NCBI RefSeq assembly: GCF_000332175.1
Contig: NZ_KB235914.1
Span: forward strand, 4,121,793 to 4,185,792
DNA length: 64,000 nt
DNA from: Pseudanabaena sp. PCC 6802
GTDB lineage: Bacteria > Cyanobacteriota > Cyanobacteriia > Pseudanabaenales > Pseudanabaenaceae
Reading direction: 5' to 3'
The translations under genes were made by a program, and so were the position numbers. Shown here piece by piece: positions 787-29,800 of the stretch (the first letter of the stretch is position 1; every line of letters begins with the position of its first letter). Below the pieces are notes generated by a model that saw nothing but the letters and a program-made list of their open reading frames with translations, was not told the origin of the DNA and did no database searches.

Positions 787-807
787 TAGGGGGATGAGCA
801 ATGAAGT

Positions 808-1767: not shown

Positions 1768-1871
1768 CTGTATTTAGCCTGAGCATAACCAGCCTTTAAA
1801 CTATATCATCGAAGACTTTGAAGAATGGCAGCTAGAGAGCGATCGCCATTCCTCAAACCTTCATTAGACAG

Positions 1872-2642
1872 TTAAACTTCAGGCTCAACCCCTAGTGCCC
1901 TTAACTGGGCTTTAAGCATTTCTACTTTCTGCTGCTCCTGCTCCGCGCGCTGACGCTCCTGCTCCGTGCGCTGACGCTCCTGTGCAATCTGCTCCTCTTG
2001 GGTGGGCAACCATACATTATTAGCATCGTACCAACGCAACCAGTCGGACTCTATGCCTTGATAAAACCCATGCCAAATGCCCAGCCCCAATTGCAATTCC
2101 TCAACCCAAAACCTGGCTGCTTCCCTATCTTGTTCGGTATATTTGCCGTTCTGCCATCTGAACTTGCGAAACTCGCTATTACGCTCGTCAAACGTGATAT
2201 AGTGTGGCACTTGCAAAATCTGTTCGTAAACCTCCCACTTAGTTGGAGGACTGCCAAGTTTGCGGACATTTCTCCCTAAATCCTCCGCCTCGGTACCTTC
2301 AGAGATCAACTCCACCACTAGTAAAGGACTCTTGCCTTCGTCCCATAGCACGTAGCTTTGGCGCATTTCTCGATCGCGATACAGTCGAGTCCCGTCCACC
2401 ACCACAAACCAATCGGGGCGTTTGTACCAGTTGAGATGGTCGAGGTCATAGTACAGATTGAGATCGCTGGCGATAAAAATGCGATCGCTCGGATAGTTAG
2501 GCGGCTGACAAGTTTGGCTGAGTACTTGTGGCTGATATAGATGGAATTCGTCAGGCAATCCTGAATCCTCTGGATAGTCGCTAGGCAGATCGTACATTGT
2601 TGGTTGTACTTTGCCTACGAGTGGCTTAATGGGTTGATACAT
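1872..2642 (-). CDS. Uma2-family (DUF820) putative restriction-endonuclease-like protein with C-terminal coiled coil
   Basis: Core LLVVELISEGTEAED...KWEVYEQILQVPHYITFD matches the Uma2 E...D...K motif pattern; QERQRTEQERQRAEQEQQK coiled-coil tail common in cyanobacterial copies. Confidence 0.7.
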   Translation of the reverse strand: MYQPIKPLVGKVQPTMYDLPSDYPEDSGLPDEFHLYQPQVLSQTCQPPNYPSDRIFIASDLNLYYDLDHLNWYKRPDWFVVVDGTRLYRDREMRQSYVLWDEGKSPLLVVELISEGTEAEDLGRNVRKLGSPPTKWEVYEQILQVPHYITFDERNSEFRKFRWQNGKYTEQDREAARFWVEELQLGLGIWHGFYQGIESDWLRWYDANNVWLPTQEEQIAQERQRTEQERQRAEQEQQKVEMLKAQLRALGVEPEV

Positions 2643-11264: not shown

Positions 11265-12635
11265 TTACTGCTCGAATTGGCAGCGTATTAGAATCGCGGT
11301 GATGTTGTCGTGACCGTTGATCGTGTTGCCAAGATTGATGAGATTTCTCACGCCAGATTTCAGGTCGGCATCGCCAGCCAGGAGCGGTAAAAGATGCGTT
11401 TCCCAATTTTGTTCTACTAAATCGTTATCGCATAGACCATCGGAACATAACAAAAATAAGGTCGGCTCGCTAACTCTTAGGAAGGAGATGCCTGGATCGA
11501 CTTGAGAATTAGCATAGGGGCCGAGTGCTTGTGTAAGTTGATGTGCGTCATGACGAGACATTGCCTCTTGCAGTTCTATACCCTGGTCGATCAGACGATT
11601 GGCAACTTCGTGATCGCGGGTAATTTGTTTCAACTCTGTGGCGGTGACTTGATAGATGCGACTGTCGCCAACATGGGCGATCGCCACTTCATTTTCATAA
11701 TTTGCTAGAAGTACCAGGGTCGTACCCATGCGTCCGGCATCGCGACGCAATTCGATCTCGTTGCGATCGTAAATTGCCTGATTCGCGACGTGAATAATCT
11801 CTCTGAGTGTCTTAATCCCTGGCAATTTATTGATCCAAAAGGGACGAAACATTTCCATAATTGTCTGGATCGCCATGGAGCTTGCTACTTCACCGCCAGC
11901 ATGGCCTCCCATACCATCGCACAGAATGAATAACCCTCGTGATGTTACCTGAGCTTTGCGATCGGGCATTTCCGTTGTTGCAATCTGCGTACCGATCGCA
12001 AAGTTATCCTCGTTATGGTCTCGTTGCTGACCGACATCGGTTAATCCAGCATAACTAATGCTGAAAATTTCTGACTTTTGAGTCTTAGCTTCTGATATTT
12101 CAAGATCTAATGGTAGGGTTGGGTTATCTGGTTCTGTTGCTGCTCGATCTGTTAGTTGTTCTGAGGGGCTAGCAGTACGTGCTTCAAGATCGTTCGCATC
12201 GGCGCGATCGCCAGGATTGCTAATATTCTTAACATCATCAGTATTTACGCTGCCAGTATCTTCATCAGTTGTGGCAGGTGGTATAGCCGGATCGCTAGGC
12301 GCGATCGTACTCTCCGTTTCAGTAGTAACGCCATCTACTACATCAACCGCAATAGGCCCGTGCCCAATCTCGGCCTGATTCGCAGGATTAATAGTTTCTG
12401 TAGTTGCTGCTGCACTAGTTGTACTTGTAATGGGGAGATCGAGGGACATGGCAGCAATGTCGCGATCGGATATATTTTCCCAGGCAGAGCTTTCACTTTC
12501 GGTTTTAGGGATTTGTATGGTAGTGTTTACACCAGCATTGGCACTGGCATTGGCAAAGTTAAAGCCACAGTTTTGACAGAACTTATTGCGATCGGGATTC
12601 TCAAAACCGCATTTAGTACAAACGATCGTAGGCAT
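11265..12635 (-). CDS. PP2C-family Ser/Thr protein phosphatase with N-terminal zinc ribbon
   Basis: CTKCGFEN...CQNCGF zinc ribbon; C-terminal LFILCDGMGGHAGGEVAS...VAHVGDSRIY...LCSDGL PP2C motifs; S/T/A/D-rich linker. Confidence 0.85.
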   Translation of the reverse strand: MPTIVCTKCGFENPDRNKFCQNCGFNFANASANAGVNTTIQIPKTESESSAWENISDRDIAAMSLDLPITSTTSAAATTETINPANQAEIGHGPIAVDVVDGVTTETESTIAPSDPAIPPATTDEDTGSVNTDDVKNISNPGDRADANDLEARTASPSEQLTDRAATEPDNPTLPLDLEISEAKTQKSEIFSISYAGLTDVGQQRDHNEDNFAIGTQIATTEMPDRKAQVTSRGLFILCDGMGGHAGGEVASSMAIQTIMEMFRPFWINKLPGIKTLREIIHVANQAIYDRNEIELRRDAGRMGTTLVLLANYENEVAIAHVGDSRIYQVTATELKQITRDHEVANRLIDQGIELQEAMSRHDAHQLTQALGPYANSQVDPGISFLRVSEPTLFLLCSDGLCDNDLVEQNWETHLLPLLAGDADLKSGVRNLINLGNTINGHDNITAILIRCQFEQ

Positions 12636-13798: not shown

Positions 13799-13892
13799 TA
13801 GCGTGCAGTGAGCTATCAGCGGTTAGCTTTTCTTAGACTTGCAAGGCGTACTCCCGGACTTAGGGACTATATCAGGAATGGATAGCATAAGA

Positions 13893-13977
13893 CGGAGAGG
13901 GGGGGATTCGAACCCCCGATGGCTTGCACCATAGCGGTTTTCGAGACCGCCGCATTCAACCACTCTGCCACCTCTCC
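13893..13977 (-). tRNA. tRNA-Ser (anticodon CGA)
   Basis: Minus-strand GGAGAGGTGGCAGAGTGGTTGAATGC...GGTCTCGAAAACCGC...long variable arm...GGTTCGAATCCCCCCTCTCCG; 7-bp acceptor stem, anticodon loop CT-CGA-AA, 85 nt, no encoded CCA. Confidence 0.9.
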
Positions 13978-14146
13978 AATTGTTATGCAGGTAGCATTCT
14001 AGTCGAGTTTAGCATCAGTCTGCTCGATCGTCGCTCAAAATATATTTCGATCGCAGGCGAAACCGATCGCAATGTTTGATTAATATTAAAAGATTGCCAA
14101 TTTTATGATTGCCAATTTATTCGTTCAAACCTAACTGCTAATTACC

Positions 14147-14653
14147 ATGAAACACACCCTCTCTGTTGTAGTTGAGGATGAGGCGGGGGTACTCACTCGT
14201 ATAGCAAGCTTGTTTGCTCGCCGTGGATTTAATATTGAAAGCCTTGCTGTTGGAGCAGCAGAAGAAGGCGGCTGCTCTCGTATTACTATGGTCGTACCAG
14301 GAGACGATCTCGTCATCGAGCAACTGACAAAACAGCTTAACAAGTTGATTAACGTCATTAAGGTAAACGACGTAACTGAGATCCCCTGCGTTGAGCGGGA
14401 GTTAATGCTGATCAAAGTTAATGCCGTTCCTGAAAAGCGATCGGAAATAATTGAGATCGCTCAGATCTTCCGCGCTCGTGTCGTAGATGTTTCGGATGAC
14501 TCGCTGACACTTGAAGTAGTGGGCGATCCGGGCAAAATGGTAGCGATCGTGAAGATGCTACAAAAATTCGGTATTCGTGAAATTGCCCGAACGGGCAAAA
14601 TCTCCCTGACCAGAGAGTCAGGCGTTAACACCGAATATCTCAAAGCTTCTTGA
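14147..14653 (+). CDS. ilvH: Acetolactate synthase small (regulatory) subunit
   Basis: [39 protein letters not shown]-domain signature of IlvH/IlvN. Confidence 0.9.
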
Positions 14654-14671
14654 GAGAACAAGCCAATTTGC

Positions 14672-14692
14672 AGGGTGGGCAATGCCCACCCT
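14672..14692. terminator. Perfect palindrome hairpin (agggtgggcaatgcccaccct) between convergent ilvH and thiC
   Basis: 9-bp stem; position between convergent genes; U-tract weak so confidence is moderate. Confidence 0.45.
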
Positions 14693-14714
14693 AACGTTTG
14701 CTGGGAAGTAATAC

Positions 14715-16230
<1,516 letters not shown>

Positions 16231-16456
16231 AAGTTAGCAGCAACTTTTAAATACATCTTTATGTTTTATGTTCTAGGCATAATAACGCGATCGCCACTAA
16301 ACCAAAACGTAACGATCGCTTTGCGATCGCTTCGGCAATATTCCGACACAAATTTCAGGGCGATCGCACGGCGGAGCTATCTTGAGAACGGCTTGCTTTG
16401 CCGATTGTTCGCCTTGATTCATTTATACTGAATCGCTGCGGCGGAATTGAGTCTAG

Positions 16457-19400
16457 TCAACTTATCAGATCCCGAAATCTCGGATCGGTGCGAATGCGAT
16501 CGAAATCTGCATCTGTCTTTGCCATCTCTCGATACTGATCGGGATTGAGTTGAATCGCTCGTTGCAGATTCTCAAGAGCCAGATCGATGTCACCCAGCAA
16601 AGCATAAGCACAAGCTTTGTTGTAAGAGGGGTTAGGAGCGTCAGCTTTAATCTCAATGGCTTTGTCATAGGATGCGATCGCTTCTTCATAGCGTCCCAAA
16701 TAAGCGAGAGTAACACCTCGGCTGTCCCATGCTTCCTGTTTATCGGGTTTAATTTCAAGGGCTTTGTCATAGGATGCGATCGCATCCTCGTAGCGGCCCA
16801 AGCTAAATAGAGCATTACCTCTGAGGAAACATGCATCCTTGTGGTTGGGATTAATGGCAATTACTTTATCGTAGGAAGCAATTGCCTCTTCATAGCGTCC
16901 TAATTTCCCCAGAGTATTGCCTCGGTTGAACCATACGTCGGGGTTGTCGGGTTTAATCTCAAGGGCTTTGTCATAGGATGCGATCGCCTCTTCATAGCGT
17001 CCTAAGTCATTTAGAGCATTACCTCGGTTACCCCATGCTTCGTACTTATCGGGCTTGATTTCCAAGGCTTTATCATAGGAGGCAATCGCCTCTTCATTCC
17101 GTCCTAACTTTCTTAAGACAACACCTCGGTTATTCCAAGAATCATGGTTGTCAGTTTTGGTCTCTAAAGCCTTGCCATAAGAAGCTATCGCCTCTTCATA
17201 GTGACCCAAGTTATATAGAGCAAGGCCTAGGTTCTTCCATGCTTCGTGAGAGTCGGGTTTGATCTCAATAGCTTTTTCATAGGAAGCAAGCGCCTCCTCA
17301 TAGCGTTCCAAGTTAGCGAGAGCAAGACCTCGATTGTTCCATGCTTCATATTTGTCAGGTTTAATCTCTAGAGCTTTGTTGTAGGAAGCTATCGCCTCTT
17401 CGTAGCGTTCTAAGTTAACAAGAGCACTAGCTCGGTTGCTCCATACTTCGTGAGAATCCAGCTTTATCTCCAGTGTTTTGTCATAGGAAACGATCGCTTC
17501 TTCATCTCGTTCTAAGTCTTTTAGAGAATTTCCTCGGTTTTCCCATGCAGCGTTGTTAAATGGGTTTATCTCTAAAGCTTTATCATAGGAAGCGATCGCG
17601 TCTTCATTGCGCCCTAACCTTCTCAGAACAACGCCTCGATCGTTCCATGCAACGCTGTCATCGGGTTTTATCTCTAGAGCCTTGTCATAGGAAGCAAGTG
17701 CCTCTTCGTAGCGTTCCAAGTTAATAAGAATATTACCTCGGTTAATCCACGCGACTTGGTAATCGCTGTTAATTTCAACGACTTTATTATAGGAAGCTAT
17801 CGCCTCTTTATTGCGCCCTAACCTTCTCAGAACAACGCCTCGATTTTCCCATGCAATGTCGTCATCAGGTTTTATCTCTACAGCTTTGTCATAGGAAGCA
17901 AGTGCCTCTTCATAGCGTTCCAGGTCAACAAGAATATTGCCTCGGCAAACCCATGCATTCTGGTAATCGCAGTTAATTTCAACAGCCTTATTGTAGGAGG
18001 CAAGTGCCTCTTCATTCCGTCCTAAGTCTTTTAGAACATTGCCTCGGTTTTTCCATGCACCGTCGTAATTAGGTTTTATCTCTAATGCTTTATCGTAGGA
18101 AGCTACCGCCCCTTCATTCCGTCCTAGTTTTCTTAGGACAATACCTCGGTTGCTCCATGTATTGCAATCCTCAGGTTTTATCTCTAGGGCTTTATCGTAG
18201 GAAGCAAGTGCCTCTTCATAGCGTTCTAGGTCAGCAAGAATATTGCCTCGGCAAACCCATACATCCTGGTAATCGCTGTTAATTTCAACAGCTTTACTGT
18301 AGGAAGCAAGCGCCTCTTCATTCCGTCCTAAGTCTTTTAGAACATTGCCTCGGTTACCCCACGCTTCATACTTATCCGGTTTAATCTCTAAAGCTTTGTC
18401 ATGACAAGCAATTGCCTCTTCGTAGAATCTCATGTTTCTCAGAGTGCAACCTTTGTTATTCCAATCTTCGTGTGAATCCGGCTTAATCTCTAAAGCTTTT
18501 TCATAGGATGCGATCGCCTCTTCATGACGCGCCAAATTGTATAGTGCAAGGCCTCGGTTGCTCCATGCTTCGTGAAAGTCGGACTTAATCTCTACAACTT
18601 TGTCCCAAGAATCAAGTGCCTCTTCATCGCGTTCCAAACTATATAGAACATGACCTCGGCTGTACCATGCTTCATGGAAGTCAGGTTTTATCTCTAGAGC
18701 TTTATCAAAAGAAGCGATCGCATCCTCATAGCGTTCCAATTTATTGAGAGCAAAACCTCGACCGTACCATGCTTCATGGAAGTCAGGTTTTATCTCTATG
18801 ACTTTGTCCCAAGACGCGATCGCTTCCTCATAGCGTTCTAATTTATTGAGAGCAAGACCTTGGCCATACCATACCTCATAGAAGTCAGGTTTTATCTCTA
18901 TGACTTTGTCCCAAGACGCGATCGCCTCTTTATAACGTTTCAAACTATTATATAGAACACCACCTCTAATGTTCCATGCTTCATAGAAGTCGGGTTTTAT
19001 CTCAAGAGCTTTACCCAAAGACGAGATCGCATCCTCATAGCGTCCCAATTTATTGAGAGCAAGACCTCGACCGTGCCATGCTTCATGGAAGTCGGATTTT
19101 ATCTCGAGAGCTTTGTCCAAAGACGAGATCGCATCCTCATAGCGTCCCAAATTATATAGAATACTCCCTCGATCATGCCATGCTTCATGGAAGTCGGATT
19201 TTATCTCGAGAGCTTTGTCCAAAGAAGAGATTGCCTCGTCATAGCCTCGCAAGTCATGTAGAGCAAGACCTCGTCTATACCATGTCATGTATAAGTCAGG
19301 CTCGTTGTTTAAAGCTCTTTCCCACAAAGAGAGTGCCTCTTCGTAGAACCTTAATTCGTAAAATGAATTGCCTAAGTCCGCTAAAAGCATACCATTGGCG

Positions 19401-21316
19401 ATGAGCTGTTCTGCCTGTTCCTTAGCTAGGGAAAGTATTTCCTGACGCTTCACTTTTGTGCTCCGCTTGGCTTTATACAATAAGGCAGCAAACTTTGCTA
19501 TACCGTCCAGCCGATCTATTTGTTCAAAACAAACCTGTAGGGATCTCTCGATTTGCTGTTTGGACAGCCCAGCTTCTTTCTTAAGCTCATCCCATGGAAT
19601 CTCTTCTGAAGTAAAAATTACTCGCCCACGGAAAGTAACGGGCATGATATCTCTTAAGAATTTACTTGTTTCGTTGTCTATGATAGGGGAGCCTTGTGAA
19701 GACAGTCTTTCTCTCTGTAACGACAGGCCAATTTCTGAGTCAATTACAATGAGTACACTCGCTATTATATCATTGTGACCAAAATAACAAGTAGTGAATA
19801 AGTGAGAAAGAAATTGAAGCTGAAAATCTGCTTGATGTGCAAAAGCACTATGATAGAGAGAGCCTGTTACATATCCTCGCCAGCGATCGCTTCGATATTT
19901 CATGCTTGGTGGGCGATCCACTGCCACTTCTAAACTAGCCTCCCCATCGTAGAATTCTGCCAACGAATGATGGATTTGACAGAATTGCCTGCGATCGTCT
20001 ACATACATTTGCCTGCGAAATACATCCCTTGCCACATCATCGAAGCGGTACTTCCCCTGTACAAATTCCACAAAATATAGCTGCGTCAGCCACTCAAAGC
20101 AATCCTGGTTTTGGTCGGCAGCGGTCAAAAAATCTAATTGCTGCGATTCTGTCAAGTGTTTTACTAGCGATCGATCGAAGGAACGACAAAAAGATGCTAA
20201 TTGGATAATGGTTCTTTGCGTTCTACTGAAACCTTCCAACAGCAATTCTGCAATTTCCTTCTCCCCATGCGAAAAGTCGATCGCTTCTCCCCTATCAAGC
20301 TTTTGGCGAATCCAGTCCAAATATTTGGGTAACCCCTTTGTGACGCGAAATATAGTCTCCGAGTCAGTTGAGATATGACTCCGCTCGCGATAATCTTCTG
20401 TCTGCCCTGGATTAAATTTCTCAATCTTACATTTGTAGACTTGCCTCGATAGCTTATTCCAGCCCTCATTCTGTAGGTCATACCTCCCAGCCACTACAAT
20501 GCGGATTAGATGTTTTTGAATATCCGTATTACTGAGTAGCGATCTCCACAGCCAGACATCTATGTTCGGACATTCTGCCTCCGCCTTTTCGTAGGTATCC
20601 AGAATCAAGACGATCGCTTTGTTTAGTACCCTAGACCTCTGCTCCAAGCTGCTTACAAAAGCCGCCGTTAGTTGCGGTAGAGGATTTTGCATCAAGTCAA
20701 TGAGATTGTTTTTACCCTTAGTAGCGGAATGCTGCAACAATAAGTCTTTAGCAGTCAGAGTGGCAGCAGCTAATTGTACAATTCCTTCTCCTGCCTTTTC
20801 ACTTGTTGTCTTGTCCACTATTCCATGCGTGACTTTGGGCAAAACAAACCCCATCGCATTTTTTGCCAATTCGCGAACAGCCTTCATCTGGTCGGACTCG
20901 ACCGATTTTTTGCCTTCGATTGGTGAGGTTTGGAGTTGCTTTAAGGTGCTGTTGTACTGCTCGTAAAGCTTTAAAAATGGATCGCGAACCGCTGCGGGTA
21001 AATTTTTTATGTCTTGCGTTAGTAAATTCCCAGGTTGAGGTAGCCTTTGATATAGGTAATGCATCAAGGCAATCAGCGCTGGCATTTCTCCCCCTTTGCG
21101 CCATTCTGTCTCCCCAAACGAGACCGCTGCAAAGCTAGCTCTATCCTCAAAATTGCTTTGAAGTTTCTGTACGAGAGTTGATTTCCCTACGCCGCCAATG
21201 CCCCAAATGTGAAATAGTATTGGCTGGTTTTTTTGTGTTTGCAAAGCGCGGTCAAAGGCAGCTTGTAAATCTTCGTCCTCTTGCCGCAAGATGTAAAGGG
21301 GAGATGGCTCTGGCAA
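16457..21316 (-). CDS. STAND (NB-ARC/NACHT-like) P-loop NTPase fused to about 28 TPR repeats
   Basis: Walker A HIWGIGGVGKSTLVQKL at residue about 38; about 600-aa helical NTPase region; then 34-aa units (YEEAIASYDKALEIKPDxxEAWxNRG) to the C-terminus. Confidence 0.85.
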   Translation of the reverse strand: MPEPSPLYILRQEDEDLQAAFDRALQTQKNQPILFHIWGIGGVGKSTLVQKLQSNFEDRASFAAVSFGETEWRKGGEMPALIALMHYLYQRLPQPGNLLTQDIKNLPAAVRDPFLKLYEQYNSTLKQLQTSPIEGKKSVESDQMKAVRELAKNAMGFVLPKVTHGIVDKTTSEKAGEGIVQLAAATLTAKDLLLQHSATKGKNNLIDLMQNPLPQLTAAFVSSLEQRSRVLNKAIVLILDTYEKAEAECPNIDVWLWRSLLSNTDIQKHLIRIVVAGRYDLQNEGWNKLSRQVYKCKIEKFNPGQTEDYRERSHISTDSETIFRVTKGLPKYLDWIRQKLDRGEAIDFSHGEKEIAELLLEGFSRTQRTIIQLASFCRSFDRSLVKHLTESQQLDFLTAADQNQDCFEWLTQLYFVEFVQGKYRFDDVARDVFRRQMYVDDRRQFCQIHHSLAEFYDGEASLEVAVDRPPSMKYRSDRWRGYVTGSLYHSAFAHQADFQLQFLSHLFTTCYFGHNDIIASVLIVIDSEIGLSLQRERLSSQGSPIIDNETSKFLRDIMPVTFRGRVIFTSEEIPWDELKKEAGLSKQQIERSLQVCFEQIDRLDGIAKFAALLYKAKRSTKVKRQEILSLAKEQAEQLIANGMLLADLGNSFYELRFYEEALSLWERALNNEPDLYMTWYRRGLALHDLRGYDEAISSLDKALEIKSDFHEAWHDRGSILYNLGRYEDAISSLDKALEIKSDFHEAWHGRGLALNKLGRYEDAISSLGKALEIKPDFYEAWNIRGGVLYNSLKRYKEAIASWDKVIEIKPDFYEVWYGQGLALNKLERYEEAIASWDKVIEIKPDFHEAWYGRGFALNKLERYEDAIASFDKALEIKPDFHEAWYSRGHVLYSLERDEEALDSWDKVVEIKSDFHEAWSNRGLALYNLARHEEAIASYEKALEIKPDSHEDWNNKGCTLRNMRFYEEAIACHDKALEIKPDKYEAWGNRGNVLKDLGRNEEALASYSKAVEINSDYQDVWVCRGNILADLERYEEALASYDKALEIKPEDCNTWSNRGIVLRKLGRNEGAVASYDKALEIKPNYDGAWKNRGNVLKDLGRNEEALASYNKAVEINCDYQNAWVCRGNILVDLERYEEALASYDKAVEIKPDDDIAWENRGVVLRRLGRNKEAIASYNKVVEINSDYQVAWINRGNILINLERYEEALASYDKALEIKPDDSVAWNDRGVVLRRLGRNEDAIASYDKALEINPFNNAAWENRGNSLKDLERDEEAIVSYDKTLEIKLDSHEVWSNRASALVNLERYEEAIASYNKALEIKPDKYEAWNNRGLALANLERYEEALASYEKAIEIKPDSHEAWKNLGLALYNLGHYEEAIASYGKALETKTDNHDSWNNRGVVLRKLGRNEEAIASYDKALEIKPDKYEAWGNRGNALNDLGRYEEAIASYDKALEIKPDNPDVWFNRGNTLGKLGRYEEAIASYDKVIAINPNHKDACFLRGNALFSLGRYEDAIASYDKALEIKPDKQEAWDSRGVTLAYLGRYEEAIASYDKAIEIKADAPNPSYNKACAYALLGDIDLALENLQRAIQLNPDQYREMAKTDADFDRIRTDPRFRDLIS

Positions 21317-21378
21317 ATGTAGACCCTCCAGATTGGCATTACATCACATTTTAATCGATTCAAATCCCCATAAACTGT

Positions 21379-21978
21379 CTAAAGGTTATCGAGCGGGAAA
21401 TTAAGTAGCGATCGCGCCTCGAAGTGAAAGTCGGTTTTCGGTTTGATAATTGCGTATAGTTTCACATCTACGTATTGCTCCCTAATAAAGGCGTATTCCC
21501 GCAATATACCCTCATATTGCATCCCTACTTTTTCCATAACGCGAGCCGAGGCAGCATTATCTACCATGCAGGTAGCTTGAATGCGGTTGAGCAGCATGGC
21601 ATGAAATCCGAACGAAATAACCGCCCGCACTGCCTCTGTCATATATCCCTGTCCCCAATACGGGCGAGCCAGCACGTAACCGATCTCGGCACGAGCATGG
21701 TTTGGTTCCCAATTAATCAGCCCACAGGTGCCGATCAGTTTACTATTGCCCCTGTGCACGATGCCCCAATCCATTGGCCTTTCTGTATAGTACTTGTGCA
21801 TTACAGACTCCAGAAACTGCTGGCTGTCCGCGATTGTTTGATGGGTCGACCAACTCGTATACCTGGTAACTTCCGGATCGCTGGCATATTCAAACACCTC
21901 CGTTGCATCGCTCATCTGCAATTGCCGCAACAGCAGGCGATCGGTTGTTAAGGTTAGTAGTAAATCTGGAACATCCAA
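21379..21978 (-). CDS. GNAT family N-acetyltransferase (RimJ/RimL-like)
   Basis: LLLRQLQMSDA...IGTCGL...RPYWGQGYMTEAVRAV motifs. Confidence 0.8.
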   Translation of the reverse strand: MDVPDLLLTLTTDRLLLRQLQMSDATEVFEYASDPEVTRYTSWSTHQTIADSQQFLESVMHKYYTERPMDWGIVHRGNSKLIGTCGLINWEPNHARAEIGYVLARPYWGQGYMTEAVRAVISFGFHAMLLNRIQATCMVDNAASARVMEKVGMQYEGILREYAFIREQYVDVKLYAIIKPKTDFHFEARSLLNFPLDNL

Positions 21979-21982
21979 AACT

Positions 21983-22705
21983 CTAGCCTCCCATTTCCCG
22001 CTGAATCCGCTCTAAGTCCCGCTTCACCTCAAAGCAAAGCTCGCGGTTGCCTGGATCGGTATTCATAGCTTTGGTGAGGTAAGCTTCAGCTTCCTTCAAC
22101 TTGCCAGCCACAAGTAACTCGCTACCGCGACGTTGGTAGGTAACGGCTTGCCAATGAACCACCTCAGGCGCATTTTTATAGCGCTCTCGCAAACCCTCAG
22201 CAATGGCGATCGCCACCACATATTTCTTTTGCTTTAATAACTCCATCAGCCGCCCCAACATATCGACTTTTAGCCTTACTTCTGGATCTGTGGCGATCGG
22301 GTCTTGCTTTTGCCGAACTTCTTTGGTTTCGATCTTGATTTTAGGTTGGGGGTTGGAAGTTTTAGTTTTTTGGGGTTGGGGGTTGGGTTTAGGTTGAGGG
22401 TTAGGGGTTGGGGGTTGGGGGTTGGGAGTTTTAGTTTTTTGGGGTTGGGGGTTGGGTTTGGGTTGGGGAGATGAAGTAGGTGTGCGGGATGCACGGGATT
22501 GTGGTTGTGGCATCACGCCAGCGGCTGCATCTTTTAAAATTTGATATGCCTCCTGCACGAGACGAAACTTGTCGGCGGCGGCGGGGTCGCCCTGGTTGAC
22601 ATCGGGATGGTACTTGCGTGCCATGCGACGATAGGCAACCTTGACATCTTCAGGCGAAGCATTACGGGGTAACCCCAGCAATCTATAGCATTCCGAAAGT
22701 TGCAT
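21983..22705 (-). CDS. J-domain (DnaJ-like) protein with PNPQP-rich linker
   Basis: YRLLGLPRNASPEDVKVAYRRMARKYHPDVN J-domain with HPD; (PNPQP/QKTKT) repeats encoded by ggttgggg tandem DNA repeats. Confidence 0.8.
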   Translation of the reverse strand: MQLSECYRLLGLPRNASPEDVKVAYRRMARKYHPDVNQGDPAAADKFRLVQEAYQILKDAAAGVMPQPQSRASRTPTSSPQPKPNPQPQKTKTPNPQPPTPNPQPKPNPQPQKTKTSNPQPKIKIETKEVRQKQDPIATDPEVRLKVDMLGRLMELLKQKKYVVAIAIAEGLRERYKNAPEVVHWQAVTYQRRGSELLVAGKLKEAEAYLTKAMNTDPGNRELCFEVKRDLERIQREMGG

Positions 22706-22914
22706 CCAGGTTAGGCAGTGGTAAGGAAGGTACAGCTAGCAAAGTATAACTCAGCATCAAAGCTTAGAAACAAGTTTGGTAAACAAACAAGCAGTTACTA
22801 GGTAACCTAGCACTGAAGTTATTGAGATCGCCTTCGACTACCTACTATCAGCCCCATCCCGCCTATAACTTATAGTTTTGGAAGGATCGACTTGCGGTAA
22901 ATTATTTTGAGGCT

Positions 22915-23514
22915 TTGACTGAGGTGAAGCTTGATTCTTACCCTGACTATTCTTTTGCGATTCGTTTGCCATCTCTAAAAATTCTTGCAATGACTAACAT
23001 TAGACTTACCTATGAGTATACTTTAAACTCAATTAAGGTTGTAGATGAAAGTATTGATAAAATAAACACAAAGCTTGCCATAGTTATTACTCTCAGTGGA
23101 GTTCTAGTTAACTTTGGGAAGGACTTACCCGGCTATTCTACAACCATATGTGAAAAAGTTAATTACCCTTGCCCAGCTTGCTATTTCATGAAGCTGGCAG
23201 CATATGTCTGCATTATCATTGCTATTGGACTAGGTTTATGGGGATTATCGCCTGCTAGCGCTGGTAAGATAGTCTTGCCAGAACAGCTACTTATGGATGA
23301 GTGGAATCTAGCAAGTGAAGAAGATTACATGACTGCGCTAATTCAATATTTAGAGAAAGAAACACTGCTAGTACTCAACAAAATTCGAGATAAAAAAGCT
23401 AGCACGCTAGATTGCGCTGTTCGCTTCATAGCAGCTTCTGTCGTACTGTTAATCTTAGATGAAATCTTAGTAACTTCTATCCCGATACTTGGGAAGCTTT
23501 GCCTGAACCTGTAA
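22915..23514 (+). CDS. Hypothetical membrane protein in AT-rich island
   Basis: ORF with 2-3 hydrophobic segments; markedly AT-rich relative to flanks; no recognised domain. Confidence 0.4.
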   Translation: MTEVKLDSYPDYSFAIRLPSLKILAMTNIRLTYEYTLNSIKVVDESIDKINTKLAIVITLSGVLVNFGKDLPGYSTTICEKVNYPCPACYFMKLAAYVCIIIAIGLGLWGLSPASAGKIVLPEQLLMDEWNLASEEDYMTALIQYLEKETLLVLNKIRDKKASTLDCAVRFIAASVVLLILDEILVTSIPILGKLCLNL

Positions 23515-23623: not shown

Positions 23624-24625
23624 CTAAATTTGGCACTTTGATTCAAGAAGGCAAGGACGATCGGAGTCGCCGACTTCGATTTGAACAGTGGCATGGTGAA
23701 TGCCGAAGCGATCGCGTAACTCTTGAGCAATCTGAGTCAGAAACATATCGCCTGGATGTCCTGTAGGGATAACTAGATGGGCTGTCAAAGCAGTTTCCAC
23801 CGTACTCATGCTCCAAATGTGTAAGTCATGTACCTGAGCTACGCCCGAGTGCTCGGAGAGATAGGTACGAACCGCACGTTCGTCAATGTTATGCGGGACT
23901 CCATCAATTGCCAGGTGAAACGAATCTTTTAATAGTCCCCAAGTGCCGAACACGATCGCAAAACTGATAATCAAGCTAACTGCTGGATCTAGCCATAACC
24001 AGTGGGTAAACAAAATGGCAATGCCTGCTATAACTACGCCCAGCGATACCATTGCATCTGCCATCATGTGTTGAAATGCAGCTCGAATATTCAGGTCTCC
24101 TTTACGACCTGACAAAAACATCAAGGCCGTGCCAGTATTAATTGCAATGCCAACAATCGCAACTCCGATTACGATCGCACCATTCACCTCACCAGGATGA
24201 ACTAGTCGCTGAATGGCCTCCCAAATAATTCCACCTGTTGCAACCAGCAGAAAGACAGCATTGAGAAAAGCAGCGAGAACCGATGACTTGCGCCATCCAT
24301 AGGTGTATCGAGCAGAGGGCTGACGACGAGCCAACAAACTTGCAATCCATGCCAGCAATAACCCTAAAACATCGCTGAGGTTATGTCCTGCATCTGCAAT
24401 AAGCGCCACCGAGTTAGCCAGAACTCCAAAGATAAGCTCTGTGACGACAAATCCTCCGTTCAGTAGCAGCCCCAAAACAAAAGCCCGATTGTAATTGGTA
24501 GAGTGATGCCCGCGATCGCCATGGGAATGTTCGTGGTGATTATGTGCATGTTTATGACCATGTCGATGTGTCATAAATTCAAGATCCCAAATGTTGCCAG
24601 AGAATCGATAAAGTTCCCCTAGCAT
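23624..24625 (-). CDS. Cation diffusion facilitator (CzcD-type) metal efflux transporter with His-rich N-terminus
   Basis: HGHKHAHNHHEHSHGDRGHH tract then CDF TM motifs (LIADAGHNLSDV...); alternative ATG at 24574. Confidence 0.85.
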   Translation of the reverse strand: MLGELYRFSGNIWDLEFMTHRHGHKHAHNHHEHSHGDRGHHSTNYNRAFVLGLLLNGGFVVTELIFGVLANSVALIADAGHNLSDVLGLLLAWIASLLARRQPSARYTYGWRKSSVLAAFLNAVFLLVATGGIIWEAIQRLVHPGEVNGAIVIGVAIVGIAINTGTALMFLSGRKGDLNIRAAFQHMMADAMVSLGVVIAGIAILFTHWLWLDPAVSLIISFAIVFGTWGLLKDSFHLAIDGVPHNIDERAVRTYLSEHSGVAQVHDLHIWSMSTVETALTAHLVIPTGHPGDMFLTQIAQELRDRFGIHHATVQIEVGDSDRPCLLESKCQI

Positions 24626-24767: not shown

Positions 24768-25058
24768 TTATTCAGGCTTTTTGCGAACCGAATACTTACC
24801 TTTCGCTGTTACGGGCGATCCCTTATTCTCTGCTAAAAGTTTCATGTATTGGTCTATTGCCTTTTCCTTGGAGGGATATTCTGCAATCACGTGAATTTTA
24901 CGGCTATGGGCCATTTCCATTACTACTTGGGTCAACGTAGAAGTCATAGGTGTTACCGTACCCTTTTTATACAAGAAATAATAGCGACAGAAACTTATAT
25001 GCAAAAAGATTCCCAAATTTTGCCGATTTCGATCGCATAAACAGCAAAAAATCAGCAA
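24768..25058 (-). CDS. Small hypothetical protein (true start possibly ATG at 24947, MTSTLTQVV...)
   Basis: ORF co-oriented 24 bp downstream of the nitrate-reductase-associated gene; no domain recognised. Confidence 0.35.
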   Translation of the reverse strand: MLIFCCLCDRNRQNLGIFLHISFCRYYFLYKKGTVTPMTSTLTQVVMEMAHSRKIHVIAEYPSKEKAIDQYMKLLAENKGSPVTAKGKYSVRKKPE

Positions 25059-26415: not shown

Positions 26416-27894
26416 GTGGATATCTATTGCACCCGTCCTGGCTGCCCTAAGCCGCTTAACTCGTTTGCCGATCTCGATACTAGCGGCACGATTAAAACTA
26501 TTACGCAAAAGTTTTGTACTAGCTGTGGTATGCCACTCATCCTCGGCGGTCGGTATATTACAGAGAAACCTCTAGCCAGGGGTGGGTTTGGCGCAACTTT
26601 TACCGCAGTCGATCGCTACACGCCTTCGATGCGGCGCTGCGTGGTGAAGCAACTGTTGCCGATCGGGTTAAATCCCAAGCAAATGCAATTTGCCAAAGAA
26701 TTATTCGAGCGTGAAGGTACAGTACTGGATCGGTTGGGCGGGCACCCCCAAATTCCTGACTTACTAGCTTTTTTTGAGGTGCAAGCACCATCGCGCAGTC
26801 CCGCCAATCCCGATCAGTTTTTTTATCTGGTACAGGAATTTATTGACGGGCTGACATTAGAGCAGGTAGTAGAGCAGCACGGCGCACTGAAAGAAGACGA
26901 AGTATTGGAGATTATGACTAGCCTGCTTCCTGTTTTGCAGTTCGTCCATGAAAGCAACTCTATTCACCGCGATATCAAACCCTCGAATATTATGGTGCGC
27001 CCGCAGGATGGCAGATATTTCCTGCTTGATTTTGGAGCGGTGAAGTTGGTGACCGCAGCAGCGGCAGGGCAGAAATCTACAGGTATCTTTACCCCAGGGT
27101 TCGCGGCACCGGAACAAATGCGGAGCGATGCAGTTTTTCCTTCTACCGACTTGTATGCATTTGCAGTCACCTGCATTTATCTGCTCACGGCCATGCAACC
27201 TGAGGATCTATTCGATCCGGCCACGAATAGCTGGAACTGGCGATCGCATGTAGTTGTAAGTTCGCAACTTGCCAATATCTTAAATAAGATGTTAGCCAAT
27301 GCCCCCAGCGATCGCTTCAGTTCGGCAGCGGAAGTATTAGCTGTCCTAACTGGCTCTCAGCAAGCAGTTTCACCTACTCCATCTAAACCAATTGCCCCCA
27401 CAGCCCCCTCTACTCCTCCAATTTCCATCATCCCCTCTAACCCCCAACCAACCCCCAACCCCCAACCCCCAGCCCCCGTCGCTCGCCAGGTACCGCATCC
27501 TCGCCCAGTTCGGCCTCCATCGCCACCCTTGGTTTTACCACCTCTGGGCAATCAGCTATTCGCTGCTTTTCTGATGGGATTTGAGGGAATGGCATTGGGG
27601 ATTATTGCCCATAGCGTCGGCTTAGCTTTAATCGGCCCATTTAGCTATGCCATCCTGGCTGGAGTAATGCTGGCATTTCTGTGGCTGCGCTCCAGTCAGA
27701 TTATGGATAACAAGGATTTGCTATTTCTAGTTGGGATCACCGCACTTTTGTTGTGGCTGAGTAAGATATTTCTCAACTGGGCAACCCCACCTTTACCAGA
27801 TATGTTTCTATTAGCTGCGATCGCGGGGTTTGCTACAGTAGCGATTATTACTTTATTCCGTCTGGTCTACCAGACCATCTACAGTCTGCTGTGA
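26416..27894 (+). CDS. Ser/Thr protein kinase with N-terminal zinc ribbon and C-terminal transmembrane region
   Basis: CTRPGC...CTSCG zinc ribbon; GGFGATF, VVKQL, HRDIKPSNIMV, DFG, APE all intact; Pro-rich (PNPQP) linker; 3-4 hydrophobic helices at C-terminus; GTG start. Confidence 0.85.
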   Translation: MDIYCTRPGCPKPLNSFADLDTSGTIKTITQKFCTSCGMPLILGGRYITEKPLARGGFGATFTAVDRYTPSMRRCVVKQLLPIGLNPKQMQFAKELFEREGTVLDRLGGHPQIPDLLAFFEVQAPSRSPANPDQFFYLVQEFIDGLTLEQVVEQHGALKEDEVLEIMTSLLPVLQFVHESNSIHRDIKPSNIMVRPQDGRYFLLDFGAVKLVTAAAAGQKSTGIFTPGFAAPEQMRSDAVFPSTDLYAFAVTCIYLLTAMQPEDLFDPATNSWNWRSHVVVSSQLANILNKMLANAPSDRFSSAAEVLAVLTGSQQAVSPTPSKPIAPTAPSTPPISIIPSNPQPTPNPQPPAPVARQVPHPRPVRPPSPPLVLPPLGNQLFAAFLMGFEGMALGIIAHSVGLALIGPFSYAILAGVMLAFLWLRSSQIMDNKDLLFLVGITALLLWLSKIFLNWATPPLPDMFLLAAIAGFATVAIITLFRLVYQTIYSLL

Positions 27895-27916: not shown

Positions 27917-29800
27917 TTACAGGCTTAATCTTCTACCTATCTCCCAAATGCCGATTGTTTTATCTTTACTGGTAGTTGCGAGAGAGAAACCCCGATCGGG
28001 GGCGATCGCCCTAACTGCTAGATCGAAAATAGAATCCTGGTGACCTTCTAATACAGCCAATTCCTCGCCAGTTTCAATATCCCAAAGTTTTATTTTTTTA
28101 TCCCAACTCGCACTTAATAGTAGGGTTTTGGAATTGGGTAAAAAAGCAATGCAGGAAACCGACCAACTATGCCCGGATAGATTGCGTAGCAATTGATGGG
28201 TTTTTAAGTCCCAAATCTTAATATCTTTGCCATCGCCAGCACTGGCTAGAATGCTGGCATCGGCATTAAAAGCCACGGATTTAATCGCCCAATTGTGCCC
28301 CTTTAAACTATGCTTTAACTCCCAATTATCAGTTTGCCAAATCTTCACTATGCGGTCTTGAGATGCACTTGCCAATAGAGGCGATCCGATCGCAAATTGC
28401 ACGTCAGTTACGGCTAAGCTATGTGCTGCTAAAGTGGTAATTAGCTCTTTAGTTTGGCGATCCCAAATTCTTATTTTTTTATCAATATGAGCGCTGGCTA
28501 GCATGGGAAGACCAGGATGAAGGGCGATCACAGCTACTCCACTGCCCGTGTCTAATTCGTGGACGATATCGCTATCTGCATTGCGACCGCCGTTCCAACG
28601 CCAGAAATAGATCTTACCTTTACGATCGCCACTAATTAAGATATTGGTATTTGGAACGAATTTAATATCTGCGATCTGCCCCTGATGCCCGTATAGATTT
28701 ACAATCCTGTCCCCTGTTTCTACTTCCGAGATCGAGATCTTTTTGTCCTCACCACCACTGGCGATAAACTTGCCATCGTCGCTATAATCAATGCAATTCA
28801 GTCCTGCGAAAAGTTCCTCGTCAGCGCGCAGAAACTTCTGACAGGTCCAGGTATATTCGAGTGCGTCCTGGTGCCTTTTCTTGCGAGCGATCGCGCTTTC
28901 CCAATCTGTGACGCTACATCCCATCATGCGTAAAACATCTGACGGAGAGCGCAGCCTTCGATCGAGATCTGGGACAATTAACTTATCGATTAACTCGCCT
29001 AATCTCTCGCGGCGATCGCTATTTACTTCTGCTTTGCTAATTTGCCAATTATCCCGCCATACCCAGCTACGATCGATCGTATTGAAGACATCGAAGGGGC
29101 GCAATCCTGTCAACAGATATACACAAACTAAACCCAAACTATAAAGATCGCTCGCAAAACACACTGTCCCTTCCAAACTTTCTGGCGCTGAAAATTCAGC
29201 AGAACCAGAGTATATATCCAGAGAAGTATCAGACTGAATATTGCGATCGCCTTTAACTTTGGTTAAGCTCATCCAATCCACTAAAATAAACTTATTTAGC
29301 TTATCTGAATAAATAATATTTTGCGGTTCGATTTCTCGATGAATTAACTTGTAACTGTGCAGATGATGTAGAACGGGCAGGATATTGAGGAGAACTTGCC
29401 AAACGCGATCGACCGCAAAAGTGCCAGAGCGATTTACCAATGTTTCCAGATTATTACCTTCGATAAATCCTCTTACCAAATAGCAATAACTATCTGTCTC
29501 AAAGCTATCGATATAATCGGGAATATCAGGATGCGGTTCGATCTCTTTTAGATAAGTAACGAGGCGGTTGAAATAGTTATTGTAGGGGTTATCTTTGTGA
29601 ATTTGTCTTAGAATACAAGAATTGGTATTGAGGCGATCGCTGACTCGAAAAACCTGACTGCGATTATTTTTATGTAAAATCGCGATCGCTTGATAGCGAT
29701 CTTTCAGACTTAAAGCAGCTCCGCAGTTGTGGCAAAACTGAGAGTCATTATCTCGATTAATTTGCAAACAATTGGGATTGAAACAGTATACCCTTGGCAT
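27917..29800 (-). CDS. Predicted pseudokinase (degenerate STK domain) with N-terminal zinc ribbon and C-terminal WD40 beta-propeller
   Basis: CFNPNC...CHNCG zinc ribbon; kinase-like fold but HRD replaced by HREIEPQN, no beta3 Lys (CILRQI), DFG replaced by DWM; about 7 WD40 units (GHxxxV...WD). Confidence 0.8.
   Translation of the reverse strand: MPRVYCFNPNCLQINRDNDSQFCHNCGAALSLKDRYQAIAILHKNNRSQVFRVSDRLNTNSCILRQIHKDNPYNNYFNRLVTYLKEIEPHPDIPDYIDSFETDSYCYLVRGFIEGNNLETLVNRSGTFAVDRVWQVLLNILPVLHHLHSYKLIHREIEPQNIIYSDKLNKFILVDWMSLTKVKGDRNIQSDTSLDIYSGSAEFSAPESLEGTVCFASDLYSLGLVCVYLLTGLRPFDVFNTIDRSWVWRDNWQISKAEVNSDRRERLGELIDKLIVPDLDRRLRSPSDVLRMMGCSVTDWESAIARKKRHQDALEYTWTCQKFLRADEELFAGLNCIDYSDDGKFIASGGEDKKISISEVETGDRIVNLYGHQGQIADIKFVPNTNILISGDRKGKIYFWRWNGGRNADSDIVHELDTGSGVAVIALHPGLPMLASAHIDKKIRIWDRQTKELITTLAAHSLAVTDVQFAIGSPLLASASQDRIVKIWQTDNWELKHSLKGHNWAIKSVAFNADASILASAGDGKDIKIWDLKTHQLLRNLSGHSWSVSCIAFLPNSKTLLLSASWDKKIKLWDIETGEELAVLEGHQDSIFDLAVRAIAPDRGFSLATTSKDKTIGIWEIGRRLSL

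Follow-up and report, generated by a model that had tools for sequence, protein, structure and literature searches.

Three closely spaced minus-strand genes in Pseudanabaena sp. PCC 6802 raise the question of whether a giant STAND-type NTPase works together with the products of its two upstream neighbours, a J-domain protein and a GNAT acetyltransferase. Within the window, i.e. the whole stretch of 64,000 nucleotides that was analysed, the genes are located at 21983..22705 (J-domain protein, 240 aa), 21379..21978 (GNAT, 199 aa, TTG start) and 16457..21316 (STAND-TPR protein, 1619 aa, TTG start), with intergenic gaps of 4 nt and 62 nt, respectively. A first-pass annotation had described this series as a J-domain protein with a Pro-rich linker, a GNAT and a 1619-aa NTPase fused to a TPR array, and both the ORF coordinates (21316-16457 on the minus strand for the latter) and the domain scans detailed below agree with this description. 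The same annotation had suggested that the J protein or the GNAT may serve the NTPase as partners in trans. Same-strand gene triplets with short gaps are commonplace in bacteria and unremarkable per se. Our analysis indicates that two unrelated units probably abut at this position: an older J-GNAT pair, which in a sub-clade of the Pseudanabaenales normally leads into the thiC leader and thiC, and an inserted block that carries an effector-less STAND-TPR gene.

The STAND-TPR reading frame spans 1619 uninterrupted codons and retains all residues that are invariant in its family. Its TTG start lies 62 nt past the GNAT stop codon and 7 nt downstream of a GGAGG sequence. Since the P-loop already occupies residues 39-47 and the frame opens 62 nt past the GNAT stop, there is no space for an N-terminal domain, and the first helix of the NTPase domain begins after only some 10 residues; the earlier statement that an N-terminal effector domain is absent therefore holds. 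The protein begins with a nucleotide-binding domain and a helical domain that bears a GxP-type motif; these are followed by a winged helix, then by a helical arm and lastly by about 28 TPRs. Residues 1-642 (19391..21316) constitute the NTPase module. In an alignment of this module from 11 family sequences, G39, G41, G42, V43, G44 and K45 of the Walker A motif GIGGVGKST (residues 39-47; 21176..21202) are invariant, as are L237, L239, D240, T241, Y242, E243 and K244 of the Walker B motif LILDTYEK (residues 237-244; 20585..20608). Between the two motifs, the nucleotide-binding domain contains a conserved non-membrane insert of 170 aa. The alignment further revealed a VVAGR motif with an invariant G277, the invariant or nearly invariant TKGLP (326-330), which corresponds to the GxP-type motif of the helical domain, and an invariant DDVARD (426-431) as part of an MHD-like LDDVARD, in which Asp stands in place of the MHD histidine. 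In the structure model, three-layer strands (E34-38, E234-240) are followed by a helical bundle (303-360) and then by a winged helix (helices and a beta-hairpin, 365-425). The Foldseek list was headed by SAMD9, Avs4, Apaf-1 and RPP1, and the best structural match of the protein was the transcription regulator MalT (PDB 8bob) at a sequence identity of 11%.

Several of the features by which STAND proteins are defined were found, namely Walker A and B, a GxP-type helical domain together with a winged-helix motif, and C-terminal repeats that are combined with varied effectors within the family. None of the Pfam NTPase models reached its threshold on the module. NB-ARC (PF00931) scored 15.8 bits against a gathering score of 23.5 and covered residues 29-57 only, that is, the P-loop, and its best E-value among the 11 family members was 0.002; the designation 'NB-ARC-like' given before was thus overstated. 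NACHT (PF05729; 16.8 versus 26.7 bits), AAA_16 (PF13191; 23.9 versus 32.6 bits) and nSTAND6 (PF25201; 16.5 versus 27.7 bits) likewise stayed below gathering, with all matches confined to the P-loop region. A profile search against PDB sequences returned P-loop-level matches only (FtsY, kinases) and was uninformative. Taken together, the module appears to be STAND-like at the superfamily level only. The KAP NTPase model (PF07693) was considered separately and rejected, with 16.4 versus 20 bits and no membrane insert in the module; a membrane segment is absent because the highest 19-residue Kyte-Doolittle mean is 0.96 within residues 1-260 and at most 1.39 in the relatives.

The remainder of the protein (16457..19390) is a TPR array, made up of some 27-28 units with 34 aa each, and a C-terminal capping segment. 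Consistent with the roughly 28 units counted before, Pfam returned 27 TPR_1 stretches, and a pattern search found 26 units at a spacing of 34 aa (one of 35 aa) after some 50 aa that resemble degenerate TPRs. Tandem Repeats Finder (TRF) reported a period of 102 nt (25.7 copies, 69% matches) as well as 306-nt sub-arrays with about 80% matches, and the array shows signs of past tandem duplication of three-TPR blocks. That the units are near-identical at the DNA level, as had been stated, goes too far: their pairwise identity averages 66% with a maximum of 91%, and the longest exact repeat measures 50 nt. An entropy of at least 2 bits occurs only at TPR positions 34, 1, 2, 5, 9, 10, 12 and 13. Variation is confined to groove-facing positions of helix A, while helix B is nearly invariant. 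This distribution suggests that the TPRs are sensor-like, and the array is presumed to form a ligand-binding superhelix.

The two upstream genes encode proteins of a different kind. The J protein, which is identical (100%) to WP_019502777.1 of Pseudanabaena sp. PCC 6802, carries a J domain (PF00226, E 1.3e-20) with the HPD motif, followed by a Pro-rich linker with a duplicated segment, PQPKPNPQPQKTKT(P/S)NPQP, and a TPR-like helical C-terminus that gave weak TPR matches. Its canonical J domain with HPD resembles that of type-III J-domain co-chaperones; it differs from DnaJ proper by lacking the Gly/Phe and zinc-finger regions. Orthologues occur in Pseudanabaena, Tumidithrix and Synechococcus PCC 7502. 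The second protein, whose TTG start lies 4 nt past the J stop codon, is a GNAT (Acetyltransf_3, E 1.3e-40) with a tail of about 20 aa beyond the domain, and this tail is kept in relatives that lack the STAND gene. With its Acetyltransf_3 match it resembles the RimJ/RimL N-acetyltransferases, which are its best NCBIfam matches, but its scores are far under the equivalog cut-offs (58.2 versus 184 bits for the RimL type, 47.3 versus 190 bits for the RimJ type).

At all seven testable loci with a GNAT identity of at least 57% (L029-L031, L033, L034, L038, L039), the J gene is located directly upstream of the GNAT gene despite differing outer genes, and these loci include Tumidithrix. No GNAT gene adjoins the J orthologues in Pseudanabaena CP112874 and Synechococcus PCC 7502, the Microcoleus GNAT gene has no adjoining J gene, and the pair occurred at none of 47 metagenome GNAT loci. 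From these arrangements, the J gene and the gene for the RimJ/RimL-like GNAT appear to form an older two-gene unit that is separate from the STAND gene; a literature search returned no paper on this pair. A small ORF upstream of the J gene likewise shows conserved adjacency.

What the STAND-TPR gene is normally associated with was addressed at the level of its family, which comprises 2613 representatives (50% clustering) at E<=1e-3 and 225 at E<=1e-30. Members are annotated only as 'tetratricopeptide repeat protein', and a literature search returned no paper on this NTPase-module family. From the homologues recovered, the family appears to be mainly cyanobacterial and to be captured by no Pfam NTPase model. 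Among the 91 representatives that contain the N-terminus of the module, 13 bear N-terminal extensions of at least 80 aa, which scan as Pkinase, TIR, PNP_UDP_1, Peptidase_C14 and AbiEii; about 86% are effector-less. Relatives with N-terminal TIR, caspase, PNP, kinase and AbiEii-like domains bear out the resemblance to STAND signalling or defence sensors noted at the outset. Clustering of flanking ORFs at 28 loci of NTPase-module homologues, which are only 29-46% identical to the module, gave no family that recurs at more than 5 of the 28. By tblastn at the same loci, a GNAT was found only at L008, at a distance of 5.5 kb, and a weak J match only at L013. Correspondingly, a Pfam census of 64 upstream ORFs from 24 loci contained no family more than three times, with DnaJ and GNAT each at most once. 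A scan of the three proteins against PADLOC-DB 2.0 gave generic TPR models and spurious matches within the array, and nothing on the NTPase module, the GNAT or the J protein.

The relatives of PCC 6802 suggest how the three genes came to lie next to each other. In all five relatives with a contig that spans the junction (L029, L032, L033, L034, L035), the order is J-GNAT-thiC and the STAND-TPR gene is absent; these sequences are 73-93% identical to the window at the nucleotide level and collinear on both flanks. Their GNAT-thiC spacers measure 0-199 bp (0, 46, 71 and 199 bp) as opposed to 5.1 kb in the window. The closest relative, L035, is collinear by blastn with window positions 22378..21388 (89%) and 16265..15091 (93%), with 199 bp in between. 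L029, which like L034 and L033 is more distant, matches 23016..21389 (83%) and 16268..13892 (89%) with 71 bp in between, and L032 has the same collinearity break. The breaks delimit a block of 5.1 kb (16269..21388) that contains, besides the STAND-TPR gene with its Shine-Dalgarno sequence, nothing but a terminator-like hairpin (16311..16331, minus strand; AGCGATCGCAAAGCGATCGTT followed by a T-rich tail, from a consensus scan only), 126 nt past the STAND-TPR stop codon. Outside the block, the conserved flank holds a probable TPP riboswitch aptamer (RF00059; 16096..16210, minus strand), a full-length match (1-105) with 54.1 bits and E 7.7e-10 that a scan at the gathering score of 54.3 misses by 0.2 bits and that lies in a region conserved in L029. 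It immediately precedes thiC (14715..16088, minus strand, ATG at 16088; 457 aa; ThiC_Rad_SAM E 4.8e-191), which in the relatives directly follows the GNAT gene. The more distant loci L038 (Tumidithrix) and L039 have the J-GNAT pair, no STAND gene, and different genes after the GNAT gene.

By parsimony across these five relatives, which are represented by short contigs, the block is best read as a lineage-specific insertion between the GNAT stop codon and the thiC leader. Apart from HIP1 copies and the TPR repeats themselves, no direct repeats, target-site duplications or terminal repeats flank the block, and no mobile-element gene marks it. There is no evidence for carriage by a mobile element, as the NTPase module had no tblastn match among plasmids and phages. 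A foreign origin of the gene by composition was considered and rejected, since its GC3 of 0.424 is no outlier to the window mean of 0.485 (sd 0.062). The NTPase part contains one HIP1 site in 1.9 kb compared to 1.72 per kb, a difference that is not significant by a Poisson estimate (P ~0.16). Because the NTPase-TPR gene would be a lineage-specific insertion between J/GNAT and thiC, its 'unusual partner set' looks like a positional accident. Within the 62-nt gap between the GNAT and STAND genes, consensus scans gave neither a terminator-like hairpin nor a promoter, so that co-transcription by read-through from the GNAT into the STAND-TPR gene is physically possible; such co-transcription would result from where the gene was inserted and would not indicate a shared function.

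Conversely, the STAND-TPR gene could be ancestral at this site and have been deleted in the relatives, which would make the trio the original arrangement. Its composition does not look foreign, and the spacers of 0, 46, 71 and 199 bp differ from genome to genome and are mutually unalignable, so that the site is evidently prone to indels. This reading would nevertheless require several independent clean deletions (in L035, L029, L034 and L033) instead of a single insertion; no spacer contains a remnant of the gene (blastn, E 1e-5), the distant J-GNAT genomes L038 and L039 lack it as well, and the nearest database homologue of the NTPase module is only 46% identical. We regard it as distinctly improbable. 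Still less probable is that the three genes form one operon and one system, in which the sensor signals via Hsp70 recruitment or acetylation. The shared strand with the 4-nt and 62-nt gaps, the lack of a terminator-like hairpin between the GNAT and STAND genes, the missing fused effector and the TPR-like C-terminus of the J protein would all fit such a system. The J-GNAT-thiC order persists, however, in five relatives without the STAND gene, and the STAND homologues at 28 loci are without syntenic GNAT or J neighbours, so that neither the proposed roles in trans nor the expected conservation of a GNAT/STAND-TPR neighbourhood found support. Such a lack of synteny elsewhere is what the first-pass annotation had itself named as counting against its proposal. 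The effectors fused within the family are TIR, caspase, PNP, kinase or AbiEii-like domains and never a GNAT or J domain. No motif is common to the N-terminus of the STAND protein and either the C-terminus of the GNAT (no local alignment in BLASTP at E<=100) or the J protein, and the GNAT tail is not specific to genomes with the STAND gene.

The same observations bear on amyloid-type signalling, in which an N-terminal motif of an NLR-like protein templates a C-terminal motif of the protein encoded upstream. This Bell/BASS gene-pair logic occurs in filamentous cyanobacteria and actinobacteria, where the NB-ARC/TPR proteins involved have short N-termini (Dyrka et al., bioRxiv 10.1101/2020.01.06.895854), and the GNAT encoded upstream does have a tail of some 20 aa past its domain. 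With barely 10 residues ahead of the first NTPase-domain helix, no alignment between the two termini, a tail that is present also in relatives without the STAND gene and no Bell domain, this mode of signalling is almost certainly not at work here. A housekeeping role of the STAND-TPR protein as an ATP-dependent scaffold or regulator, either a switch of the MalT type that has no DNA-binding domain or a platform of TPRs on which a cellular complex is assembled, is somewhat easier to envisage, yet rather unlikely. MalT as the best structural match, the effector-less state of about 86% of the family representatives, the missing PADLOC match for the NTPase module, the lack of plasmid or phage matches and the ordinary chromosomal context among housekeeping genes would be in line with it. 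On the other hand, the closest relatives can do without the gene, it has no conserved genomic partner, TPR variation is concentrated at binding-face positions, and relatives carry TIR, caspase, PNP and AbiEii-like fusions that are typical of death or defence systems.

Our preferred explanation thus remains that an effector-less STAND-TPR sensor was inserted next to an unrelated J-GNAT pair, and the adjoining J protein and GNAT do not appear to be its partners. By analogy with other STAND proteins, the protein would be held off in an ADP-bound closed state until a ligand binds on the concave side of its extended TPR superhelix; an exchange of the nucleotide would then drive its oligomerisation. 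As no effector is fused to the protein, the output may be the oligomerisation itself or may come from partners that are encoded elsewhere, for example effector-bearing paralogues. Two further alternatives are conceivable, both of them quite unlikely. The effector-less majority of the family may act as sensors that hetero-oligomerise with the minority of TIR, caspase, PNP and kinase paralogues, amounting to a bacterial sensor/helper NLR network. In PCC 6802, the insertion may also have created a read-through transcript that brings the sensor into contact with an Hsp70 co-chaperone or under its control. A functional link of the J protein or the GNAT to the STAND protein that arose recently in PCC 6802 alone may lie outside the reach of comparative genomics.

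If true, the partner set would have represented a new route of NLR-like signalling via a chaperone or an acetyltransferase, a significance that falls away, as the evidence points to a positional coincidence. The value of the locus lies elsewhere. The 640-aa NTPase module merits a model of its own and inclusion in STAND phylogenies. Its family ties proteins that lack an effector to fusions with TIR, caspase and PNP domains. A natural with/without pair for the function of an effector-less sensor is available in PCC 6802 and its relatives from metagenomes, and the J-GNAT pair together with the small ORF upstream of it offers conserved adjacencies in their own right.

Compared to known systems, the locus shares with the Bell/BASS pairs a short-N-terminus, NLR-like TPR protein whose gene directly follows another one, in a filamentous cyanobacterium. 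It differs in that a common terminal motif (of at least 15 aa) and a Bell domain are lacking and in that the upstream gene is a conserved GNAT gene that predates the insertion. MalT, the STAND prototype, is only 11% identical to the window protein, which has no LuxR-type DNA-binding domain. The sensor repeats of MalT are of the SUPR type, whereas the sensor encoded in the window consists of 28 canonical TPRs. Avs4 (PDB 8dgf) and Avs5 (PDB 9nc9, 9jap) have a weakly similar fold of the NTPase core and likewise a repeat or helical sensor joined to the NTPase. Unlike Avs and other antiviral STANDs, the protein matches no PADLOC NTPase model but only generic TPR models and has no nuclease, SIR2 or protease effector. 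NLR-like STAND NTPases with TPR or WD40 repeats were reportedly described by Leipe and colleagues in 2004. The domain order and repeat array are the same as in such proteins from filamentous and multicellular bacteria (see Kaur et al. 2020, PMC7159879, and Kaur et al. 2021, PMC8195603), with which the family also shares its mainly cyanobacterial distribution and its fusions to TIR, caspase, PNP-phosphorylase and kinase domains. The module differs from them in staying under the NB-ARC, NACHT, AAA_16 and nSTAND thresholds, in its conserved 170-aa insert between Walker A and B and in an LDD in place of MHD, and the window member, like most of its family, has neither an effector domain nor a conserved neighbour. 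Judged by these likenesses, the STAND-TPR protein appears to be an effector-less member of the NLR-like STAND-TPR sensors, a kind that is already known.

Three minus-strand genes follow one another with gaps of 4 nt and 62 nt, just as the first-pass annotation had placed them, and its domain assignments for the first two held. The first (22705-21983) encodes a 240-aa J-domain protein (WP_019502777.1 of Pseudanabaena sp. PCC 6802; PF00226, E 1.3e-20) with an HPD motif and a linker rich in proline; at its C-terminus a Pfam scan gives weak TPR-like matches. The second (21978-21379) encodes a GNAT protein of 199 aa (Acetyltransf_3, E 1.3e-40), whose top NCBIfam matches, RimL and RimJ, both lie far under the equivalog cut-offs. 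The third, the STAND-TPR gene (21316-16457), encodes 1619 aa from a TTG start with GGAGG 7 nt upstream and ends in a normal TPR cap. The absence of an N-terminal effector domain was also borne out: the open reading frame opens right past the GNAT gene and the P-loop occupies residues 39-47, which leaves no space for one. No database record matches the 1619-aa sequence exactly, and a homologue search with the NTPase module returned nothing above 50% identity, although the collection includes the PCC 6802 J protein; public annotation may have missed the gene or given it another form.

The NTPase part had been described as NB-ARC-like. When scanned alone, the module (residues 1-642) stayed under every Pfam NTPase threshold (NB-ARC 15.8 vs 23.5 bits, AAA_16 23.9 vs 32.6, NACHT 16.8 vs 26.7, nSTAND6 16.5 vs 27.7), with these four models aligning around the P-loop only, and ten relatives likewise reached no Pfam NTPase model at threshold. 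An 11-sequence alignment of the module displays an N-terminal PYISR, Walker A GIGGVGK[ST], a conserved insert of ~170 aa, Walker B LDTYEK, VVAGR (G277 invariant) at the place where STAND NTPases have the sensor-1 arginine, TKGLPYYL (GxP-type) and, after a predicted winged helix, LDDVARD. Judged by its motifs, this series follows the STAND order. An NB-ARC identity was not demonstrable from a sub-threshold score confined to the P-loop, and we file the protein as a putative divergent STAND NTPase of a clade without a Pfam model.

In the TPR DNA, Tandem Repeats Finder detected a 102-nt period (25.7 copies, 69% matches) and two sub-arrays with a period of 306-309 nt (three TPRs each) and ~80% matches, which indicate past duplication of blocks. 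The units are not near-identical in DNA, as had been claimed: pairs share 66% on average and 91% at most, and exact repeats reach 50 nt at most. With such low identity and short exact repeats, the array is at present only a modest substrate for recombination. Across the window's array, an entropy of at least 2 bits occurs at canonical TPR positions 34, 1, 2, 5, 9, 10, 12 and 13 only, that is, in helix A and its groove-facing side, while helix B and the structural positions show almost no variation. A consensus scaffold whose binding face has diversified would be expected to look like this. In the units (window 16668-18929), the cyanobacterial HIP1 octamer GCGATCGC is repeated in phase, coding Ala-Ile-Ala of the EEAIASY motif; the 2.9 kb of TPR DNA has 8 copies, the NTPase part, 1.9 kb long, has 1, and the window-wide density is 1.72 per kb.

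Close relatives of the GNAT were taken from metagenomes and their contigs compared with the window. The order DnaJ-like gene, GNAT gene, thiC was found in L029 (GNAT 86% identical), L034 (73%) and L033 (71%). Both flanks are collinear with L029 by blastn (window 23016..21389 at 83% and 16268..13892 at 89% nucleotide identity), where 71 bp separates the collinear blocks. The closest relative, L035 (89-93% nucleotide identity), carries 199 unrelated bp at the junction, and in L032 collinearity is broken at the same place. In their place the window has a block of 5.12 kb (16269-21388, minus strand), which holds the STAND-TPR gene, its ribosome-binding site, a terminator-like hairpin (16331-16311, minus strand) and nothing else. 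A single insertion in the PCC 6802 lineage is more parsimonious than several clean deletions, and the gene appears to have landed in a spacer prone to indels, with an older J-GNAT pair on one side and the probable thiC riboswitch on the other. The block bears neither a scar nor a target-site duplication, and no gene for mobility; its composition is unremarkable within the window. HIP1 copies lie within ~100 bp of either edge. Elsewhere, window 1-2000 has a G+C of 0.378, markedly under the rest (0.42-0.52), and GC3 is 0.31 in the ORF at 808-1767. Just downstream of the block, in the conserved flank ahead of thiC, lies a probable TPP riboswitch aptamer, matched over its full length (16210-16096, minus strand; 54.1 bits, E 7.7e-10), which a default Rfam scan misses because it scores 0.2 bits under the gathering score of 54.3; for thiC, the ATG at 16088 is a likelier start than the TTG at 16103. 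A tRNA gene (13893-13977, minus strand; Rfam 61.4 bits) lies between a PHP-domain ORF and the acetolactate synthase small-subunit gene.

The conserved unit is J-GNAT adjacency, which is smaller than the trio and not universal. It occurs in all seven testable loci with a GNAT identity of at least 57%, among them that of Tumidithrix helvetica, where the genes on both sides differ. Neither Pseudanabaena CP112874 nor Synechococcus PCC 7502 has a GNAT adjoining its J orthologue, the Microcoleus GNAT has no adjoining J gene, and among 47 metagenomic GNAT loci that are more distant, no upstream J gene was seen. In the J gene, the Pro-rich stretch (window 22370-22468) is built of a degenerate 6-7-nt repeat, with a ~20-aa segment duplicated; J orthologues measure 206-325 aa, which suggests a linker of variable length. 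Immediately upstream of the J gene, relatives (Pseudanabaena, Tumidithrix, Synechococcus PCC 7502 and two from metagenomes) encode a small conserved protein, 55-62 aa long, …QVVLE…RKVHVIAE…KGSP.T.KGKYSIRKKP (L033 9004-9192, L038 4073-4246, L039 3552-3728, L121 4777-4944, L122 4825-4992). The window copy (24771-24935, minus strand) lies 2 kb from the J gene; between them, a cation-efflux gene (23624-24625, minus strand) and a 199-aa ORF without Pfam matches (22915-23514, plus strand) look like a second, older insertion. A second J-domain protein of 465 aa with genuine TPRs (44564-45961, plus strand; DnaJ E 3.4e-24, TPR_1 E 6.8e-20) is unrelated in position to the STAND-TPR locus. Eukaryote-like signalling genes also cluster in the window, namely a Ser/Thr kinase (26416-27894, plus strand), a kinase fused to WD40 repeats (27917-29800, minus strand) and a PP2C-like phosphatase (11265-12635, minus strand).

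A collection-wide genome scan with the TPR-free module alignment yielded 28 loci, almost all cyanobacterial. By tblastn with the window's proteins, a GNAT occurred in one of them, 5.5 kb off, and a weak J-domain match in one other. All-against-all clustering found no flanking-ORF family common to more than five of the 28 loci, and in a Pfam census of 64 ORFs up to 3 kb upstream in 24 loci, no family turned up more than three times, and DnaJ or GNAT families no more than once. Going by these results, members of the module family are solo genes whose surroundings vary. The anatomy is largely as first described. Reading it as a system of three genes, with unusual partners, finds no support, the STAND gene being absent from the relatives' J-GNAT-thiC order.

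The proposal that the J protein or the GNAT acts as effector in trans fared no better. Beyond adjacency, nothing ties either to the STAND protein, and relatives without the STAND gene still have the GNAT's C-terminal tail. BLASTP found no motif common to the STAND N-terminus and either neighbour, which excludes adjacent-gene signalling of the known Bell/BASS type (bioRxiv 10.1101/2020.01.06.895854). A consensus scan detected no terminator-like hairpin in the 62-nt gap, so that read-through transcription from the GNAT into the STAND-TPR gene may be possible; a functional link of recent origin, confined to PCC 6802, is conceivable, but no positive evidence speaks for it.

Homologues of the 642-aa module share 34-50% identity over the covered parts, nearly full length in most, and are named solely 'tetratricopeptide repeat protein' or 'hypothetical protein'. 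An exhaustive profile search returned 2613 cluster representatives at E<=1e-3 and 225 at E<=1e-30. By manual count, 13 of the 91 representatives covering the N-terminus of the module bear an N-terminal extension of at least 80 aa; the eight scanned comprise protein kinase, TIR, PNP_UDP phosphorylase, caspase (Peptidase_C14) and AbiEii-like domains and one coiled-coil leader. About 86% lack such an effector domain, the STAND-TPR protein among them. In a few of the 28 loci, Peptidase_C14 or PNP_UDP_1 domains (two loci each; e.g. L008 4060-7848) occur in the ORF that immediately precedes the STAND homologue; these could be effectors, either encoded separately or fused upstream. Based on the family's effectors and the variable groove-facing TPR positions, the most likely mechanism is an ATP-dependent switch, in which the long TPR superhelix would take up a ligand and, once bound, would free the NTPase to oligomerise. 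That partners encoded elsewhere, such as effector-bearing paralogues, give the output of the effector-less member is the most attractive guess. The locus retains value in defining a large STAND clade missed by the Pfam models, and as a natural presence/absence pair for probing the role of such proteins. It encodes an effector-less NLR-like STAND-TPR protein, a known kind in filamentous cyanobacteria, and the effectors fused to its relatives are of the kinds typical of NLR-like conflict systems in multicellular bacteria (PMC7159879, PMC8195603).
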